Shown here: positions 1,924 to 22,369 of the stretch, in pieces
How positions within the stretch are numbered: position 1 is the first letter of the stretch
How the letters are laid out: the number at the start of each line of letters is the position of its first letter
Assembly: GCA_016699935.1 (NCBI GenBank)
Contig: CP064992.1
Span: 900,001-932,000 of the forward strand
Length of the DNA: 32,000 nucleotides
DNA from: Candidatus Saccharimonadota bacterium
GTDB lineage: Bacteria; Patescibacteriota; Saccharimonadia; Saccharimonadales; UBA4665
Direction: 5' to 3'
Position numbers and translations under genes: made by a program
The notes under the pieces: generated by a model
What the model saw: only the letters and a program-made list of their open reading frames with translations
Told to the model about the DNA's origin: nothing
Database searches by the model: none

Positions 1924-3347
1924 ATGACTCTGCAACCACTAGATTTACCCACCCCAACTGACGACAACCGTTTCAATGCGGTTGATCCGCTCGATGGCCG
2001 CTATTACGACCCAGAGATTGCCAAATATCTTTCGGAACGGACTCGCATACTTACTCAGGCGCATAGAAGCTGCCCTGGCTTACGGCTTGGCGGAGTTTGG
2101 CCTTTGTAGCCAGGAAGTTGCCCAGCAGATAGATGCTGCCAGTCGCAAGATTCGTGGAAGATGTCGCAGAAGAAGAAAAGACTACGCGCCACGACGTAAA
2201 AGCCATCGTCAACACCATCAAAAAAAGATCTGCCAGAAACTGCCCAGCCCTATGTACATTTTGGCGCCACGTCTTATGATATAGTCTCGACAGCTATGAG
2301 TTTGCAGCTGCGAACCGCCGTGCACGATCTGCTTTTGCCTCGTTTGCAAGCTTTGCAAAAAACATTGGCCGAACTGGCCGAACGCTACGCCGACACTGTG
2401 CAAATAGGTCGAACTCACGGTCAACACGCCGTGCCAATCACTTTCGGTTATTTTCTAGCAACCTATGTGCAGCGTTTGGGTGAAAGCACTCGTTCGCTTG
2501 AGGTTTTGAGCGCTAAACTAAAAGGTAAATTCTCTGGGGCGGTTGGCACCTACAATGCCATCTCTGTTTTTGTGGACGACCCACTGGCGTTTGAAAAAAC
2601 CGTACTTGGCTATGTCGGCCTCGAACCAGCGCCAGCTGCCACACAGATTGTCCCGGCCGAAGGCTACATACGCTTGCTCGACGAGCTGGCCATTTCTGCT
2701 GGTGTCATGGCGAACCTATCGCACGACATGCGCAATTTGCAGCGCAGTGAGATTGGCGAAGTGCGTGAGAAGTTCGAGGAAGGCCAAACTGGCTCAAGTA
2801 CCATGGCGCACAAGCGTAACCCCTGGAATTTTGAAAACATCATCGGCATGTGGAAGCAAGTGACAGCGCAGATGGTCAATGCCAACCTAAACATATCGAG
2901 TGAACACCAGCGCGACCTGACCGATTCGTCCTCGGCCCGTTTCTACACAACGTCTTTTGCGCTCGTTGCCTCGATGGCGAAGCGTTTGAACGAGGTCATG
3001 AGCAAGATTGAAGTCGACGAAGAAGCCATGCAGTGCAACTTGTACCTGACGAAAGGTGCCATTGCCGCCGAACCGCTTTACCTGTTGCTCGAAAAGTACG
3101 GCCACACGACGGCGCATGAAGCATCCAAGGCGCTGGCTCACGAAGCAATGGAACGAAACGTCTCTCTGTATGAGGTAGCATCCCAGGCGGAATCGATCGC
3201 TCCCTACTGGTCCAAATTCACCGACGCCGAACGTGACCTAATCCGCTCCCCGAAACCCACTACACCGGTTTGGCCTCCCAGAAGGTCCACGAAGTTGTAA
3301 TAGAACAGCTAGAGTTTGACAATTATACAAATAGTAGTATAGTATAG
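1924..3347 (+). CDS. purB: Adenylosuccinate lyase, frame-disrupted as sequenced
   Basis: ORFs 1924-2109, 1976-2284 and 2296-3300, plus a shifted tail ending at TAG 3345-3347, concatenate to a PurB-type lyase. Motifs: PLDGRY, TRHDVKAIV, HFGATSYDIV, GRTHGQHAVP, the signature GSSTMAHKRNP, and a C-terminal ETHYTGLA. Four frame corrections are needed, one of them in the A7 tract at 2220-2226. Confidence 0.85.
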
Positions 3348-3352
3348 ATCAT

Positions 3353-3867
3353 ATGAGAAAACGTATTTTAACCTCAGCCGTTCTGTCTGTCGGGTTACTT
3401 TTGGGAGGCTGTAGCGAAACAAATCCAGAAACAAGGGTGACAGCTCAGCAACTTAAAGATAATGGATGCAAATCTGGAGAAAAATATCGTGTTGCCGGTA
3501 ATGTGGCGTTGCTAGGCAAAAATCGGAATGGATACCTTATCCAACAGTTGTGCCTGTCACAAAGTTGAATCGTATTATGATAGTGCGTCAAATACTACAA
3601 AAATGCGTACGGTCACAAGTACCGAGGTAAGGATTTCTATCACAGATGGTTGTCACTACTTACGATTTGCGCGGAGATGATGCAACTGATGCGGGTATCC
3701 GCGTCAAGGAAAAGGAGGGCGGATTATACGTACCGAATCTTCCGGTTGTTCCGGCATTTGATAGTACTCATACGGATAGTGTCGATGTCATCGGAGTCGC
3801 TACTCAAGACATGGCAAGGGGCCGCATTATCGCAGCCAATAGCATAGTCTCATCCGACTCGGAGTAG
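3353..3867 (+). CDS. Putative lipoprotein (fragments 3353-3568 and 3646-3867 probably belong to one gene)
   Basis: The N-terminus MRKRILTSAVLSVGLLLGGC has a signal peptide plus a lipobox Cys. The gap between the fragments is open in the other frames (…VESYYDSASNTTKMRTVTSTEVRISITDG…). Upstream lie TTGACA (3316-3321) and TATAGT (3338-3343). No recognisable domain. Confidence 0.5.
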
Positions 3868-14000: not shown

Positions 14001-14327
14001 TGGCAGTTCTCGGACTGCCAAGCCGACCAACTTTTGGGCAGCCAAAGTTGGACAAAGCTGCCGGGGAGAATGCAAACGACCGGCTTACTTGAAATTTCTT
14101 TTGACCTGTTTGGTTCCTGCGAAACTCCTCATTACTATTCGTCAAACATTCTCGTCACGCAAGCAGTCCAAAAGAAATTTCAAATCAGTCGTTCTGCGTC
14201 CCCGGTTTTCAGCGACCCAACCCCGACTGCTTCGAAGTGAGCACTCACTGCAGACCGCTAGCAGAGAAGTTGTAGAAGCCGACAACATCCGAGCCAGAAG
14301 CCTCCGCATGGCCAGAATTAGTTATAT
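14001..14327 (+). repeat. Family A structured repeat, copy 2 (candidate ncRNA)
   Basis: Second copy of 142-468, in the same orientation. Local hairpins lie at 14002-14019 and 14027-14051. Nested long-range helices pair 14061-14074 with 14195-14205, 14089-14105 with 14166-14183, and 14107-14112 with 14143-14148. It lies between the convergent ends of pyrD and htpX. Confidence 0.8.
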
Positions 14328-15458: not shown

Positions 15459-15487
15459 TTGTAATATCTTGAACTAACTTGTATCAT
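15459..15487 (+). promoter_or_regulatory. Promoter of purA with leaderless geometry
   Basis: TTGTAA (15459-15464), a 17-nt spacer, then TATCAT (15482-15487), followed by 6 nt and the in-frame GTG at 15494. Confidence 0.45.
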
Positions 15488-15493
15488 ACCCAG

Positions 15494-16786
15494 GTGAAAA
15501 TCATAGGTGTTTTTGGGCAACAGCGTGGCGACGAGGGCAAAGGCCGTGTGGTCGATATGCTGGCCGAATCGTGCGACATGGTTGCTCGGTTTAACGGTGG
15601 TAGTAATGCTGGCCATACAGTAGTCCTACCCGATGGCCGTGAACTGGCCTTGCACATTGTGCCTTCGGGTATTGCTCACGAAAAAGCGGTCAACATCATT
15701 GGTAATGGCACCATCGTCGACCCAATCCGTTTCAGCGAAGAAATTGCGTCTATTGAAAGCCTCGGCATTACCGTGACACCCGAAAAGCTCAAGGTTAGTT
15801 CTTCGGCGCATTTGGTTCTGCCCCACTACAAAGTACTGGAAGAAATTCGCGAACTTGGGCGAAGTGCTCAAGGCTCGACCAAGGCAGGTATTGCCGATAC
15901 CTACGCTGCTAAGGCACAACGGTCTGGTGTCCGGGTCGAGCGGCTACTCGGTAGTCACGATGCTCTACTACAGGTCGTACGTGATGGCTTGAACTCGGTA
16001 CAAATGGAGCGAAAAAAGCATGGTTTGCCCCCTGTAGATATCGAAAATGAAGTGAAAATATACAGCGCAGCCATAGTAAAGTTGCAGCCTTTTGTGACCG
16101 ATACCTCAGTGTATGTAAACGAGCATTTAGCGGCGGGCGAGACGCTGCTGGCCGAGGGCGCGCAAGCTTTCTTACTTGACATAGATCACGGTATGTACCC
16201 ATACGTCACCTCTTCTTCGACGACGGCTGGTGGTGTGGCGACTGGCCTGGGTATAGCCCCAACTACGCTCGATCGGTCAATTGGCATAGTCAAAGCTGTG
16301 CAATCACATGTCGGTGGCGGACCGTTCGTGACCGAAATTCATGATGAAAAGCTGCTAGATGTTTTGCACGGCGATATGACGACCATAGACGCCGAAAAGG
16401 GTACCACAACTGGTCGTGTGCGTCGACTAGGTTATCTTGACATCACTGGTATACGCCGGGCAGATATGGTGAATGGTACGACAGAACTCGCCATTACCAA
16501 GCTCGATTGGGTACCACGCTATGGCAAAACTATCAAAGTCTGCACCTCGTACACCTATCGCGGTCAGACTCTTTCTATGGCACCAGATTCAGCCTGGGCG
16601 CTGGAAAAGTGCGAGCCAGTGTATGAGGAACTTTCCGCCTGGGATGAGGATATAACAGAGGTGCGATCTTTCTCGGAACTACCTACTGCTGCCCAAAAAT
16701 ACATTGAAGCTATCGAGAAATGGACGGGCTTACCCGTCACCTATATTGGCGTTGGCCCTCGCCGCGACCAAGTCATCATCCGCTAG
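15494..16786 (+). CDS. purA: Adenylosuccinate synthetase
   Basis: Intact ORF. Motifs: GQQRGDEGKGRVVD (P-loop GDEGKG), NGGSNAGHTV, GSTKAGI, GTTTGRVRR and GVGPRRDQ. The start could be GTG 15494 or TTG 15479. Confidence 0.9.
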   Translation: MKIIGVFGQQRGDEGKGRVVDMLAESCDMVARFNGGSNAGHTVVLPDGRELALHIVPSGIAHEKAVNIIGNGTIVDPIRFSEEIASIESLGITVTPEKLKVSSSAHLVLPHYKVLEEIRELGRSAQGSTKAGIADTYAAKAQRSGVRVERLLGSHDALLQVVRDGLNSVQMERKKHGLPPVDIENEVKIYSAAIVKLQPFVTDTSVYVNEHLAAGETLLAEGAQAFLLDIDHGMYPYVTSSSTTAGGVATGLGIAPTTLDRSIGIVKAVQSHVGGGPFVTEIHDEKLLDVLHGDMTTIDAEKGTTTGRVRRLGYLDITGIRRADMVNGTTELAITKLDWVPRYGKTIKVCTSYTYRGQTLSMAPDSAWALEKCEPVYEELSAWDEDITEVRSFSELPTAAQKYIEAIEKWTGLPVTYIGVGPRRDQVIIR

Positions 16787-17587
16787 TACGTTGTGTTAAA
16801 GCATTTTATAAGGTTTGCAAGGTTTTTTGGAACGTCGCTACATGTCAATTGGTTGATTGAATGGATGGGAAGGATTTTGGCGCTGGTGCTGGTAAGGAAG
16901 GCGGCTTCGTAGTCTTCGAGTGAGTTGAGCGGAATGGGCTGATGGACGATGTCGAAGCCTTGTTCACTGGCCAGTTTGAGAACATGGTCGCGGGTGACGC
17001 CAAGCAGGATGTCTGCTTCAGGCGGTGAGTAGATAGTATTGCCCTTTAGCATAAAGAAATTGCTGCGAGTTCCCTCGGTGATTTCGCCGCGGCGGTCGAT
17101 GAGCAGTGCGTCGTGCGCGCCTTTAGATTGAGCTGCCCGATAAGCTACATAGCTCGGGAGCATATTGAGAGTCTTCGCGTGTGGGTAGGTTCGTTCATAC
17201 TCGTAGGTGGTGCAGTGGCAACCGGTTTTGTACAGTTTCCTCGACGAAGTAAGGTGCGAGGCACAGGACGTATAGCTCGGCATCGGCCGCGGTTTTGCCG
17301 CCGATGAGCAGAATCTTGATATTGCATGTTTCCACTTCATTTGCCGCGATTATATCTGTTATGTAGTGCTCAATTTCACCTGGTTTGTAGGGGTGCTCGA
17401 GGCAGATAGCCTGCGCCGAAAGCTCAAGTCGGCGGCAATGCTCGCTTACAAAGTGTGCTTTGCTATGCGAAACGCGGATGGTTTCGTACACGCCATAACC
17501 GTATGAATATTCGATACTGGCGAGTGGTACAACTGCTTGCTCAGCTGGTAAAATATGGCCATTCTTTGAAAAATATGCGTAACTCAT
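16783..17587 (-). CDS. Class IV (branched-chain / D-amino-acid) aminotransferase-fold protein, frame-disrupted
   Basis: The ATG at 17585-17587 gives MSYAYFSKNGHILPAEQAVVPL…YGYGVYETIRV. After a shift around 17200-17340 the protein continues as …LNMLPSYVAYRAAQSKGAHDALLIDRRGEITEGTRSNFF…LLGVTR. Its end overlaps the purA stop. Confidence 0.65.
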
Positions 17588-17637
17588 GTACCTATAGCGT
17601 AGCTCAGAAAGGTACAATCACCAAAACTACTCTACCC

Positions 17638-17807
17638 CACGAGTTTCGCACCAGCCAGCCTGCCGTCCAGCGAAACTGGCCGCACCGCTGTCTTCTCCAA
17701 ACTCCTGCACATTTTTCCTCTAGTACTCTCTTCACCGTACTAAAGTACTGCTCGTTCCGTGCTTCGAGGAGACAATGCTTTATGAGCGTGTGAATGCGAA
17801 ACTCGTG
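17638..17807. ncRNA. Family B structured element, compact copy (candidate ~170-nt ncRNA; strand unresolved)
   Basis: A 13-bp closing stem pairs CACGAGTTTCGCA (17638-17650) with TGCGAAACTCGTG (17795-17807). Inner helices pair 17710-17713 with 17774-17777, 17717-17720 with 17766-17769, and 17721-17726 with 17737-17742. It shares three near-identical blocks with 21407-21649. Confidence 0.55.
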
Positions 17808-17842
17808 TACTCTAATATGATTGTGAGTATCGTGTCGTTGCG

Positions 17843-18136
17843 TTACGGTTCTCGCTGATGGTTTACGACAGAAGTCAAAAACAGGTGAACTACATTACCA
17901 GCAAATCCCGAAGACGGGGCATGAAGGCATTTGAGCCCAGGAGACGAGTTTACCTCCAGAATTTGGGCGGTCTCAAATGAGTCGACCAGGTAGTCAACAG
18001 CGGCAAATTCGAGCTTTAGTATATGGGCAATATCGGTTGATCTGGTCACCAACGTATAATCCCACGCTGGTTCTGGAACCGAAACGTGTCGCAAAGACCT
18101 GTCATATTCGACAGAATTACCATACTGGCTGCAACT
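17843..18136 (-). pseudogene. C-terminal remnant of an ATP-grasp (RimK/Ddl-like) enzyme
   Basis: The open frame encodes …LKLEFAAVDYLVDSFETAQILEVNSSPGL…, the Mg/ATP-binding end of ATP-grasp folds. There is no room for the N-terminal ~200 aa before the next gene. Confidence 0.4.
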
Positions 18137-18191
18137 CTATTTCAAGTGCAGATCGGTACTGAACTCTTGTTTTTGTGAATAGCTGGAGCTA

Positions 18192-18491
18192 TTAACGGCG
18201 CTGGAAGCCACCACGAAAGCTATTGCCATTGTCTGGGCGGCTTTCGCGTGGTTTTGCTACGTTAACAACGATCATGCGTCCTTCAAAATCTTTGCCATCA
18301 AGGGCGGCGATGGCTGCTTGGGCGGCTGCATCGTCTTCCATTTCGACAAAAGCAAAGCCTTTTGAGCGGCCACTGTCTCGGTCCATGATAACTTGTGCGC
18401 TGACGACGGTGCCGTACTGAGCAAAGAGAGTTGTCAAAGAAGCGTCGGTCGAATCATACGATAGTTTGCCGACAAATAATTTTACTGCCAT
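18192..18491 (-). CDS. RRM-domain RNA-binding protein with a Gly/Arg-rich tail
   Basis: Intact 99-aa ORF. RNP-2 is LFVGKL and RNP-1 is KGFAFVEM. The C-terminal tail is RGGFQRR. Confidence 0.9.
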   Translation of the reverse strand: MAVKLFVGKLSYDSTDASLTTLFAQYGTVVSAQVIMDRDSGRSKGFAFVEMEDDAAAQAAIAALDGKDFEGRMIVVNVAKPRESRPDNGNSFRGGFQRR

Positions 18492-18684
18492 TGGTATTGA
18501 GCCTTTCTATGAGCTGATATTATGCGAGACATTGTCTACTCTTGTAGCCGAGTATAGAATGGCTGTTGCTGTAAGCTCACTGTACGCTGGGATAAAGTCT
18601 AGAATAACTTGCGAATCATATTGTACCACAGATAGTAGAAATTACCTATAAAAAGCTGGCAGTGCCTGTTTTAAGGTGAGAGTT

Positions 18685-18858
18685 TTAGCGGCGGCGAGTC
18701 ATTAGGCGGAGGTTTGAGAGGTAGTGCTGCGGGTCGGTGGTTGGGTGTGTCCGCAGGTATTCGAGATGTTTCTCGACAAACGGTATGACGTGGTTGGGGT
18801 AAAGCTCGCTGTTTGGACTATACCCCGCCTCGGTTATATAGGTTGTGTCTGATGCCAT
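18685..18858 (-). CDS. Small hypothetical protein (57 aa)
   Basis: The ATG at 18856-18858 lies downstream of the helicase stop. The sequence is MASDTTYITEAGYSPNSELYPNHVIPFVEKHLEYLRTHPTTDPQHYLSNLRLMTRRR. No family assigned. Confidence 0.4.
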   Translation of the reverse strand: MASDTTYITEAGYSPNSELYPNHVIPFVEKHLEYLRTHPTTDPQHYLSNLRLMTRRR

Positions 18859-18934
18859 GCTTTTTAGCGCTTGAACGAATGCAAGGCCTTCTGGGCTGGC
18901 AAAAAGGCGATGTTTTTGGCTGCTGCACTCATGG

Positions 18935-20166
18935 TTATGATTCCACAAAAGTTAATGCGTATCCGATACGCCCTGCTCGACCTGAGCGCCCGATACGGTG
19001 AATATAGTCATCGTAGGTCTGTGGTTGGGTGTAATTGATGACATGGGAGATATCGGTAACGTCGAGGCCACGTGCCGCAACATCGGTGGCAACGAGGATG
19101 TTCACGTCGCCTCTTTTGAAACTGGCAAGTGCGTGCGCTCGTTTTGCTTGGCTTTTGCCCCCGTGTATGCTGGCAACCTTGAAACCGCGCAGTCCGAGTT
19201 CCTTTTCGAGCCGTTCTACTCCGCGTTGAGTTGCTTCAAAGATGATGGCTTTTTCGGTGTCCGGATGAATAAGCAGGTCGTGGAGTTTGCCTTCTTTGTC
19301 GGCTTTACCGCTGAAGCGTATAACGTCCTGGTGGACATTTTCACTCGTATCGTTTGTCTTGACGGTAACAAGTTCTGCGTGAGGCGAAAATGTACGGATC
19401 AGTGCATCGACGCGGGCATCCATGGTTGCCGAAAAGTAAAAGGACTGGCGTATCGGGGCTACGTGCTCCAGCAGCAGTCGGACGTCGGCCACGAAACCCA
19501 TATCGAGCATGCGGTCAACTTCGTCGAACACGACAAGGTTAAACTGCGAAAGCTGCAATGTGCCACGGTCGAGGTGGTCTTTTATGCGACCGGGTGTGCC
19601 GATAACGAGCCGTGGTCGTGCGCGTAGTTCACGAAGCTGTGGACCATATGCCATTCCCTGAGTATAAGTGCGCTCGCAATGTTGCTGCCTTGAGCCATAC
19701 TTCGACACTCAGAAGCTATTTGTTGTGCAAGTTCACGCGTGGGAGCGACTATCAGGGCGCGGCTAGTGTTGTCGTTGAGAATCCGGTGCAAAATTGGTAG
19801 CGCAAAGGCAGCGGTTTTACCCGTACCGGTTCCGGCTATGCCGATAACGTCTTTACCGAGTAGTCCAAGCGCAATTGTTTGATCCTGTATGGGCGTGGGC
19901 GTTACGTAGCCCTTACGGTCGATGTTTTGCTGCAACCTTTTATCGAGGGTAAAGTCAGAAAAACTATGCTTTGTTTGGTATGATTCGCTGTCGGTTGGCG
20001 TGGCAACGCGAACAAACCTCTCGGGGTTTATGTATTGGCCACGACCACGCGGTTTGCGCTGCGGTCTTGGTTTGCTATAGGAGAACGGCTGCCTTTGTAG
20101 GCAAAGCCGCGTCGGGTTGATGTGGGCATAAAAATAAGTCCTTCGTGTGTAGCTTGGTTTATACAA
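18935..20166 (-). CDS. DEAD-box ATP-dependent RNA helicase, frame-disrupted
   Basis: Motifs: Q-motif region FSDFTLDKRLQQNI…PTPIQ, motif I AGTGTGKT, PTRELA, then after a shift near 19590-19700 TPGR, DEVD (a DEAD variant), SAT, and HRIGRSGRAG. The N-terminus is Arg/Lys-rich. The start is uncertain: TTG 20166, or ATG 20129 with a further shift. Confidence 0.85.
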
Positions 20167-20380
20167 ACAGATTGCTATGAATCCTGAGAGTAATAACTAC
20201 GTAACCACTTCCGGACTCTTGATAGTGTGCTGTCGTTCATACTGAACACAGCAGATAACAATTCCCTAACATCTTAGCATAAATAGAATCAAACTGCAAA
20301 TCAGTTCTAGAAATTGTTTTCTCATAGCGCATATGCTATTATGAAAATAGAACAGATTTTGTGTGAAAAGAAAAACTATA

Positions 20381-20512
20381 ATGAATAATGATTGTCTTCT
20401 TGCAAACACAGGCTCACCCCAACAATTGTATATGGTGGTAGCTTCTTGTCTGGTGCTACTTGCGCTTGTGACTGTTTTCTGGCGACGGAAAAAGTGTATC
20501 AACTCGGACTGA
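20381..20512 (+). other. 43-codon ORF consisting only of a sortase-type sorting signal (orphan, or fused to the next gene by a frame error)
   Basis: MNNDCL-LANTG-SPQQLYMVVASCLVLLALVTVF-WRRKK gives an LPXTG-like motif, a hydrophobic helix and a basic tail. No upstream body exists in any frame. The A5 tract at 20489-20493 separates it from the adhesin-like frame. Confidence 0.3.
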
Positions 20513-21311
20513 CGGCATTCTTACTAGCTTTTACATGGTTACTCAGCCCTCTTGTGTTGGCACCAGTCTATGCAGAGGGTACTTCCGCGGTCTGCTCGCC
20601 ACCTCGCTCAACGCCAGATGCAACCAGTGGCGTACTAGGTGCTTCGCAAACTATCAATGTCCTAGCTAACGACTCGCCTACGGTCGGCCATAGCTTTGTA
20701 GCTTCAAGTTTACGGCTTCGCCTTGTCGGTAACCCGCGCGCTGGTTCTGTGCTTGGAGCGAACAGCATGACTGTAACCGTTCCGGGTGAAGGGACGTATA
20801 CGGCGCTCAATACTGGGTTTATTGTGTTCACGCCCGAACCTGTTTTTGTTGGTACGACACTAGGCGTCGCTTATACGATAACAGACACGGTTGGTGCCAC
20901 GACAAGCAACACTTATACTCCTACCGTGTCTGGTGCGCCCGTCGCAACTTGTAGCGACCCAGCTAGTGAAACACGCGTACTCGCTCCTCTTCTTATTAGT
21001 TATATTAATGGGGTCGATGAATACATCTACGACGACTGGCTCGCTATGAGCGGAAATAGTCCGCTACTTGACCCGCTACTACTCGACCTTAACCCAGCCG
21101 AATCGGGCACGCAAACGACGCTATCATATCCGCTTGAGGGTTGGACAGCGAATTATAACCCCTCAACCGACAAGCTAACTCTTTCCGTGACAGACTGGAT
21201 CGTTTTCTACACCACAGTCGACAGGGTGTTTTGTTCACGTATAGCCTTACTCCCGCTCCAGGATGCACCCAGCCGGCTGCCGCCGATGCCACCATTATTC
21301 TAGTCGGATAA
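20494..21311 (+). CDS. Secreted adhesin-like protein with an Ig/cadherin-like repeat, frame-disrupted near the C-terminus
   Basis: A signal-like segment LGLTAFLLAFTWLLSPLVLAPVYA is followed by EG. Block: INVLANDSP…VTVPGEGTYTALNTGFIVFTPEPVFVG…AYTITDTVG. A shifted tail, …FTYSLTPAPGCTQPAAADATIILVG, ends at 21311. The start is uncertain (GTG 20494 or TTG 20392). Confidence 0.55.
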
Positions 21312-21406
21312 TTCTTCTATGCTGCAAATGTTTTTAAATGAGTTATATTCGTTGTCAGTAATTGGCATCTGACCAAATAGCTGCCCAAAATCCCTCCATT
21401 GTCTTT

Positions 21407-21649
21407 AACACGCCTTTCGCACCAGCCAGCTTGCTTCCGGCACAGCCGGAACTCTGCTGGCTTCTCCAAACTCCTGCACATGTTTCCTCTTTAGTACATC
21501 GGCTTTGCCTCTTTTCTCGCTGCTCAGAAAGAAAATGTAAAACCTTTTCTTTCCTGTGCGGCTGCGACACCAGTCGCTGTACCTTAGTACAGCTCATTCT
21601 GTGCTTCGAGGAGAACATGCACATGAGCTCAAAGTGCTAATTGCGTGTT
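21407..21649. ncRNA. Family B structured element, expanded copy (candidate ncRNA; strand unresolved)
   Basis: Closing helix: AACACGC (21407-21413) and GCAC (21418-21421) pair with GTGC (21634-21637) and GCGTGTT (21643-21649). It carries the conserved blocks TTTCGCACCAGCCAGC, CTTCTCCAAACTCCTGCACAT and AGTACNGCTCRTTCYGTGCTTCGAGGAGA. A ~100-nt apical insertion includes the hairpin GAAAGAAAA/TTTTCTTTC. Confidence 0.55.
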
Positions 21650-21894
21650 TAATAGTATGGTCTTGTGCAATTATTCTTGGTAAGAAAAGAGAATACTGAC
21701 GAAACCGTCACATAATGCAACGAGTGTAGCTATTCCGATATCGAGTAGTAATCGATTAGTTAGAATACAGCGAAACTGAAAAATCCTTGAAAAGCTCATT
21801 GTATATCGCTTTGACCTACCTGTAGGCCCGTGCAAATCTATTTCTAGCTCCGGACGAAGCTAGAATGAAAAACTAAATAATCTGTTACTAAATA

Positions 21895-22369
21895 CTACTC
21901 AGCGTTACTTTCAAAGTTTTGTACTTTCCAGTTGTCATCTTGTTTGACCAGGTTGACAGTGAGTGTGTATGTTTTGGCATCACTACCTTTTATTTCGTAC
22001 ACAACCTTACCTGTCGTGGCCTTGCCAGTTTCTGAGGTGACGCTTTTGTCTTTCATTTTTTCCTCTGTATTCAAAATCGGTGCTATACGCTGCACCATTG
22101 CATCGAACTCTTCACTCGTGACTGTTTCTTTGGCCTCTTTGCTAAAAAGCCCATATGCTTGGCCAGAATCTTTGGCTTGCATGGCATTGATGAACTTATT
22201 GCTGGCAGTCACGGCTCCTTGAGTGGCTTGGTTGGCAAAAATCATTAGTAGGACGAAAACACCAGCCACAGCTAAAGCTGCAATCAGCAATTTCTTTTTA
22301 AAGGCATCTTTGTTTTAGTGGCTACTGTTGCCACTGACTGTGTTTCTGCTGCTGTTTGGATTTGGTCAT
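21895..22369 (-). CDS. Membrane-anchored small protein (N-terminal TM helix plus an exported alpha/beta domain), frame-disrupted
   Basis: The ATG at 22367-22369 has the SD AAGGAGG and gives MDDQIQTAAETQ…KMPLK. After a shift in the T5/A5 tract at 22295-22299 it joins ORF 21895-22290 (LLIAALAVAGVFVLLMIF…). No family assigned. Confidence 0.55.

Follow-up and report, generated by a model that had tools for sequence, protein, structure and literature searches.

Family B, one copy of which occupies positions 17638–17807 of the window (here, the whole 32,000-nt stretch of DNA that was analysed), is with a probability of about 0.9 a non-autonomous MITE (miniature inverted-repeat transposable element) that derives from an ISAba11-like insertion sequence (IS) of the IS701 family resident in this Saccharibacteria clade. 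The element carries no transposase of its own and its insertions are polymorphic between relatives. Both the designation as a MITE and the choice of an autonomous partner are based on the IS-like ends of the element, the 5-bp duplications flanking it, an empty site, and its absence in relatives. An earlier note on this DNA had instead described a stem-closed structured RNA loosely resembling 6S RNA, a reading that is not supported in view of the lack of an Rfam match, the IS ends, the duplications, the empty site and the absence of strand bias.

The two window copies and the wider family

Copy c1 is the short form of the element (170 bp, 17638–17807, plus strand; nhmmer E=1e-45 against the family profile) and was aligned with the seven other copies. 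The 13-bp closing stem described earlier is present, with 17638–17650 (CACGAGTTTCGCA) being the exact reverse complement of 17795–17807, and its true extent is 14 positions, 17638–17651 with 17794–17807; the innermost position is a C/A mismatch in c1 and a C-G pair in the other seven copies. These 14-mers are the terminal inverted repeats of the element (both listed on the plus strand): the left one, CACGAGTTTCGCAC, was identical (14/14) to both IS ends in contig L124 (1417–2488) and agreed at 12/14 positions with the IS in L014, while the right one, ATGCGAAACTCGTG, agreed at 13/14 positions with the L124 right end GTGCGAAACTCGTG. The 5-mers on either side, TACCC (17633–17637) and TACTC (17808–17812, read from the sequence), were the same at 4/5 positions and form an imperfect target-site duplication. 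Inside the repeats, a subterminal nested hairpin (17653–17693, plus strand; helices 2 and 3 of the consensus) aligned with the reverse complement of IS right ends. Its outer stem, AGCCAGC/GCTGTCT, is paired at 6/7 positions in c1, the 3' strand being GCTGGCT in most copies, and its apex is CCAG[CGAAA]CTGG. It is followed by an internal palindromic module, TGCA..TTTTTCCTC / GAGGAGACAATGC, built around the hairpin CCGTAC..GTACTG (17706–17780, plus strand; consensus helices 4–6).

The second copy reported for the window was confirmed at 21409–21647 (c2, plus strand, 239 bp; nhmmer E=2e-41, pairwise and family alignments) and represents the long form, with an internal insertion of about 72 nt, mainly at 21498–21569 (plus strand), that forms an extra arm with its own hairpin of variable sequence and was also found in copy c6 (L033). 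Its plus-strand terminal inverted repeats, CACGCCTTTCGCAC (21409–21422) and GTGCTAATTGCGTG (21634–21647), matched the IS repeat CACGCATTTCGCAC of L014 at 13/14 positions and the IS right end GTGCGAAATGCGTG at 12/14 positions, respectively, and are flanked by perfect copies of the target-site duplication TTTAA at 21404–21408 and 21648–21652. Of the three blocks said to be common to the two copies, TTTCGCACCAGCCAGC (17644 and 21415) and CTTCTCCAAACTCCTGCACAT (17692 and 21461) were exact, each occurring exactly twice in the window vs. 0–0.3 times expected, and the third was recovered with 3 mismatches in 29 positions. The genomic contexts were also as described, with c1 beside the start of an aminotransferase gene and c2 between convergent genes; c1 lies 50 nt upstream of the ATG of a class IV aminotransferase gene (17588, minus strand).

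Several neighbouring features of the window were recorded. In comparison with their orthologues, several window genes are interrupted (regions 16783–17617, 18935–20166 and 17843–18094): the genes for a DEAD-box helicase and for the class IV aminotransferase each appear as two overlapping ORFs, and an ATP-grasp gene encoding 275 aa in L012 was represented by an 83-aa C-terminal remnant adjoining c1. These interruptions reflect either pseudogenisation or assembly indel errors. A different repeat of about 330 nt, family A, was located at 142–468 and 14001–14327 (87–100% identical, with internal inverted repeats). The 10-mer that the earlier note found in both families, GAGTTTCGCA / TGCGAAACTC, occurs four times in the window vs. 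0.12 expected, two of these occurrences being in family A, where the core of the terminal inverted repeat, GAGTTTCGCA, lies on the minus strand at 258–267 and 14118–14127; the segment after it differs between the two copies (CCGCCTTTGGCGGGG vs. TCATTACTATTCG). Family A had no Rfam match and may represent a further IS-related or composite element. Elsewhere, at 494–560 and 1616–1711, long repeats of a motif of the CTCTTATCTC/TTAACTCT type (31 nt, 94% complementary), in both inverted and direct orientation, flank an ORF at 919–1623.

Eight copies of family B were found in all, corresponding to seven independent insertions (c7 and c8 are orthologous), with lengths of 168–244 bp in two length forms. 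The six copies beyond the window were on metagenome contigs, most of them short, of soil, sludge and other origin. Relatives were compared at loci syntenic for purA, the window adenylosuccinate synthetase gene (15479–16786), whose product had its best matches, at 87–90% identity, among proteins assigned to Ca. Saccharibacteria or Saccharimonadales, which places the window in a Ca. Saccharibacteria (TM7)-like genome. A gapped pattern scan of metagenome contigs yielded three copies (L024, L030 and L033), its 17 other matches being chance hits in GC-rich coding DNA, and a MITE-internal ORF used as bait led through a single protein cluster, P0121, to the orthologous copies c7 and c8 (L043 and L044). 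Searching the window and every locus examined with the family profile added no copies to these eight. A scan of GTDB genomes with the exact 19-mer TCTCCAAACTCCTGCACAT gave 11 matches, which all fell within protein-coding genes, lacked the other two searched blocks in their vicinity and were attributed to chance; the 19-mer was too strict, as most copies differ there. Likewise, none of the 79 matches to GCACCAGCCAGCYTGC in viral contigs fitted the family profile, and all were attributed to chance.

The interior of the element was 76–92% identical between genomes, exceeding the surrounding intergenic DNA. Block variants were distributed in a mosaic, with the two window copies sharing CTCCAAAC and the L016 and L033 copies sharing one apical hairpin despite their different length forms, which suggests recombination or conversion between copies. 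A coding role for the element was considered and rejected: a minus-strand ORF (MCIFSSKH...) was open in c2, c4 and c5 and broken in c1, c3 and c6, plus-strand frames differed between blocks, and no reading frame was conserved across copies. In L043, a public 135-aa gene call (3088–3495, P0121) joins this minus-strand ORF to the beginning of a genuine KGG-repeat stress-protein gene; the fusion is an annotation artefact caused by the element.

Terminal repeats, target sites and the partner insertion sequence

A sensitive BLAST comparison at the purA-syntenic locus of genome CP064993.1 (L014) matched c2 to both sides of a transposase gene. The IS at this position (17554–18638) starts with CACGCATTTCGCAC, which is identical to the left end of c5, and ends with GTGCGAAATGCGTG; its ends agreed at 13/14 positions with c2 and at 12/14 with c1. 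Its 328-aa product was assigned to NCBIfam model NF049921 'IS701 family transposase' with 335.5 bits (cut-off 250), also matched the Pfam families DDE_Tnp_1 (PF01609) and DDE_5 (PF13546), and the partner transposase shared 30% identity over 97% of its length with annotated ISAba11 transposases. Further IS members were reached via transposase homology in L124, L125 and L126. The L124 IS (1,072 bp) has the ends CACGAGTTTCGCAC / GTGCGAAACTCGTG, as in c1 and c7, and the terminal repeats of the element matched the IS copies in L014, L125 and L126 at 12–14 of 14 positions. Across the eight MITE copies, terminal pairing extended over 14 positions in every copy, with 93.8% of cells paired. No transposase homologue was detected in the window by tblastn with the IS transposase, and no full-length IS was seen within its 32 kb. 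The IS copies showed target-site duplications of varying quality: perfect in L124 (GTAAG/GTAAG), TCTAA(A) in L125 when one base of boundary shift was allowed, 4/5 in L014 and then only with one boundary moved by a base, and none at the flanks of the L126 IS.

The similarity to the IS extends unequally into the element. Its first approximately 60 nt are a diverged copy of the IS right end and align with it in reverse-complement orientation; this stretch contains the hairpin CCAGCG(C)AAGCTGG, whose IS counterpart falls within the last codons of the transposase. At the other side, the last approximately 19 nt of the element matched the IS left end, with no similarity further in. The middle approximately 90 nt consist of palindromic-module filler not traced to either IS end.

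The left ends of the IS copies themselves (L014 17554–17640, L124 1417–1500, L125 9916–10000 and L126 1747–1830) carry a nested stem, CCTGC...GCAGG, with a perfect apical hairpin that varies by IS variant (GCAGGGC-GTTA-GCCCTGC vs. AGCATGAC-ATTA-GTCATGCT), and the 3' strand of the outer stem bears AGGA directly upstream of the transposase ATG. A terminal-repeat-like site, ATCCGCGTTTCGCAT, was moreover noticed in the aminotransferase coding region at 17465–17479 of the window (minus strand), where it agreed at 11/15 positions with the 15-mer ACACGCATTTCGCAC, and in the orthologues of L015 (8018–8031) and L016 (8772–8785), with 12/14 positions shared with the 14-mer CACGNNTTTCGCAC.

Perfect 5-bp repeats abutted the CACG...CGTG ends in c2 (TTTAA), c3 in L016 (TACTA) and c7/c8 in L043 and L044 (CCAAA). 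Counted by independent insertion (n=7), three had a perfect duplication, c1 matched at 4/5 (TACCC/TACTC) and three had none; for any one copy, a perfect 5-mer match would arise by chance with a probability of 1/1024. The copies with no 5-bp duplication at their flanks, c4, c5 and c6, are all located on short metagenome contigs, and for c4 and c5 (approximately 2x coverage) chimeric joins at a repeat are a possible reason for the missing duplication. An empty site was identified for c3: L015 reads ...GCAG TACTA TACTGGTATG, and L016 reads ...ACGA TACTA [element] TACTA TAGTGCTATG. No element was found at the c1 site in L012 or L014. In L012, the closest relative (purA 90%), the aminotransferase and ATP-grasp genes are separated by 43 nt with no element between them. 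Copy c3 in L016 (purA 87%) also precedes this aminotransferase gene, but has the opposite orientation to c1 and a different insertion point; it lies on the strand of the gene and ends 13 nt short of the ATG. Two other traces were considered at this locus. A 7-bp duplication TACTCTA at c1 was rejected, its left copy being parted from the element end by CCC, which the uninterrupted L012 sequence has as well, and the reading of GCTATG-CCCCGTCCGT-GCTATG in L012 as an excision footprint was left as unsupported.

In the mechanism that we propose, a transposase supplied in trans by a full-length IS, residing elsewhere in the genome or in a past genome, would excise or copy the element by way of its two 14-bp ends, the predicted binding and cleavage sites of the IS transposase, and insertion would occur into short, mostly A+T-rich 5-bp targets that are duplicated in the process. 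The closing stem would exist because both ends must match one transposase, and the compensatory change in it would reflect terminal repeats that drifted together or were drawn from IS variants (of the CACGAG vs. CACGCA type). The internal hairpins, whose shape was kept and whose sequence was not, would mirror the subterminal hairpins of the parent IS and most likely represent a cis feature of the element DNA or of read-through transcripts rather than a free-standing RNA gene.

Folding, covariation and alternative readings

The window copies folded far below their shuffled counterparts (z −4.2 to −7.9), equally on both strands, and the consensus fold energies were −64.4 kcal/mol for the plus strand vs. 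−68.2 kcal/mol for the minus strand. In the consensus of the eight copies, 51 pairs were formed with 95.1% of cells paired, and eight pairs were changed on both sides, exceeding the shuffle controls (0–2 of 500); the covariation score was 0.131, compared with 0.072 for shuffles (0/500) and no more than 0.057 for slid controls. The compensatory change noted earlier between CATT/AATG in c1 (17710–17713 with 17774–17777) and CATGT/ACATG in c2 is correct in the register used for it; in the RNAalifold register, which is shifted by one bulge, the same position is mismatched in both window copies. The 5' hairpin that was reported to keep its shape with a changed sequence does so even more widely across the family, with three unrelated sequences forming perfect hairpins at one position among the eight copies: CCAG[CGAAR]CTGG, TTCCGGC[ACA]GCCGGAA and CAGATGC[GGA]GCATCTG. 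Pure neutral decay does not explain hairpin changes on both sides of eight pairs. The earlier note had named a failure of the helices to covary among homologues as evidence against its RNA, and they do covary. Such covariation does not constitute evidence for an RNA here, since it is expected of MITE terminal repeats and internal palindromes, and no strand bias accompanied it: single-side transitions yielding G.U pairs numbered approximately 5–6 on the plus strand vs. 8–9 on the minus strand. A strand assignment based on two 'invariant U.G' pairs was discarded, as these depend on the RNAalifold register and one of them is a bulged G in the other register.

A duplicated free-standing small RNA gene (6S-like, Y-RNA-like or another sRNA), with the closing stem as an RNA helix, would fit the strong predicted folds, the arrangement of closing stem, internal loops and hairpins, and the covariation, but we regard it as very improbable. 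Rfam gave no match at gathering thresholds in the whole window and no 6S or related family at E≤10 around both copies (17400–22000), where the only matches at E≤10 were to eukaryotic miRNA and scaRNA models (E 0.22 and 6.8) and were attributed to chance; a tRNA and tmRNA scan was negative, and neither a promoter nor a terminator was found in or beside the two window copies. Further arguments against an RNA gene are the identity of the ends with IS terminal repeats, the duplicated target sites, the empty site seen in a relative, the lack of the c1 insertion in L012, the nearest relative, and the inversion of the L016 copy. A retron msr-msd, suggested by the paired ends and internal hairpins, was also set aside, as no reverse transcriptase was seen among the neighbours scanned and the IS match explains the ends. 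Even less credible is a role as a leader or riboswitch acting in cis on the class IV aminotransferase gene, although the window and L016 lineages both have a copy immediately upstream of it: the two copies lie in opposite orientations at different nucleotides, no element accompanies the orthologues in L012, L014 and L015, and other copies are situated between convergent genes or beside unrelated MarR and KGG-repeat genes. The argument of the earlier note against a gene-specific leader thus holds, given the absence from orthologous loci, the inversion in L016 and the unrelated contexts of the other copies.

Two further readings accept the MITE and concern its interior. In one, which we consider improbable, though less so than an RNA gene, the interior was selected as a structured RNA or cis-regulatory module (an SD-sequestering helix, an RNase target or a read-through insulator) and spread by transposition. 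The paired fraction of cells, the double-sided pair changes and the excess of covariation over the controls speak in its favour, as do the three unrelated sequences that make a perfect hairpin at the same position and the placement of the L016 element so close to the aminotransferase ATG on the same strand; in addition, the helix TTTTTCCTC/GAGGAGAAA would occlude an SD-like GGAG that precedes an ATG, and the left-end stem of the parent IS, with AGGA in its 3' strand just upstream of the transposase ATG, is analogous. This is opposed by the lack of strand asymmetry in G.U-giving transitions, the equally good folding of both strands, the missing promoter and terminator, and the orientation to neighbouring genes, which differs between copies; the sample is, moreover, small and includes the orthologous pair c7 and c8. 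Somewhat less unlikely, though still doubtful, is that the hairpin modules were kept by selection since the IS group needs a subterminal stem-loop, either for transposition or for insulating or sequestering translation signals. This structural requirement is suggested by hairpins that are free in sequence and conserved in structure at the same position of the MITE, with analogous ones at both ends of the parent IS. We tentatively consider the subterminal stem-loops a putative cis feature of this IS group that was inherited or re-created by the MITE; in the IS, their role may lie in transposition itself, in the control of transposase translation or in protecting the latter from read-through.

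Relation to known elements and significance

Bacterial MITEs derived from DDE insertion sequences include the Correia elements of Neisseria, derivatives of IS630, IS5 and IS4, and MIC231 of Bacillus. Like these, the MITE family described here is small (168–244 bp), lacks coding capacity and is intergenic in either orientation, has ends equal to those of a full-length IS and a target-site duplication of fixed length, folds back on both strands and shows insertion polymorphism between relatives. It differs from known MITEs in its partner, an ISAba11-like IS701-family element, in its host, a Saccharibacteria (CPR) lineage, and in its interior, which is not a simple fusion of IS ends and consists of modular hairpins with sequences swapped between copies.

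The partner IS resembles ISAba11 (1,101 bp) in its length of approximately 1.07–1.09 kb and in encoding a DDE transposase of approximately 323–328 aa within the same NCBIfam model family. ISAba11 insertions are accompanied by a 'characteristic 5-bp direct repeat', TATAG and ATTTA (PMC7885321), comparable to the 5-bp duplication GTAAG and the A+T-rich sites of the partner IS. In contrast to ISAba11, which belongs to Acinetobacter, the partner IS is only distantly similar and its terminal repeat is specific to Saccharibacteria elements, and the window element is a non-autonomous derivative rather than an IS. With 6S RNA, c1 shares a size in the range of approximately 170–190 nt, ends paired in a long closing helix, and internal loops; unlike 6S RNA, family B is multicopy and mobile, with target duplications, no conserved locus, no strand preference and no Rfam 6S match. 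No report of MITEs in Saccharibacteria or Patescibacteria, or of MITEs tied to ISAba11, was found in the literature searched, which does not prove novelty; we consider the family to be a previously undescribed one of a well-known kind.

The assignment eliminates what had looked like a new structured RNA and illustrates that the terminal repeats of a MITE, together with its internal palindromes, can be mistaken for RNA helices that covary. It is also a caution for gene callers, as one public contig carries a gene call in which a MITE-internal ORF is joined to a genuine gene. The remaining interest lies in the hairpins, which conserve structure and not sequence, and in the repeated insertion beside the same gene. 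If the IS group does need its subterminal stem-loops, each insertion would bring a portable RNA/DNA structural module (an SD-sequestering helix and hairpins) beside host genes in a reduced CPR genome. For the Saccharibacteria, which have very small genomes and whose mobile non-coding DNA is little described, the analysis documents an active or recently active pair of an IS701/ISAba11-like IS and its MITE, with insertions directly upstream of genes and one aminotransferase gene hit twice independently, and provides a family usable as markers for strain-level comparison.
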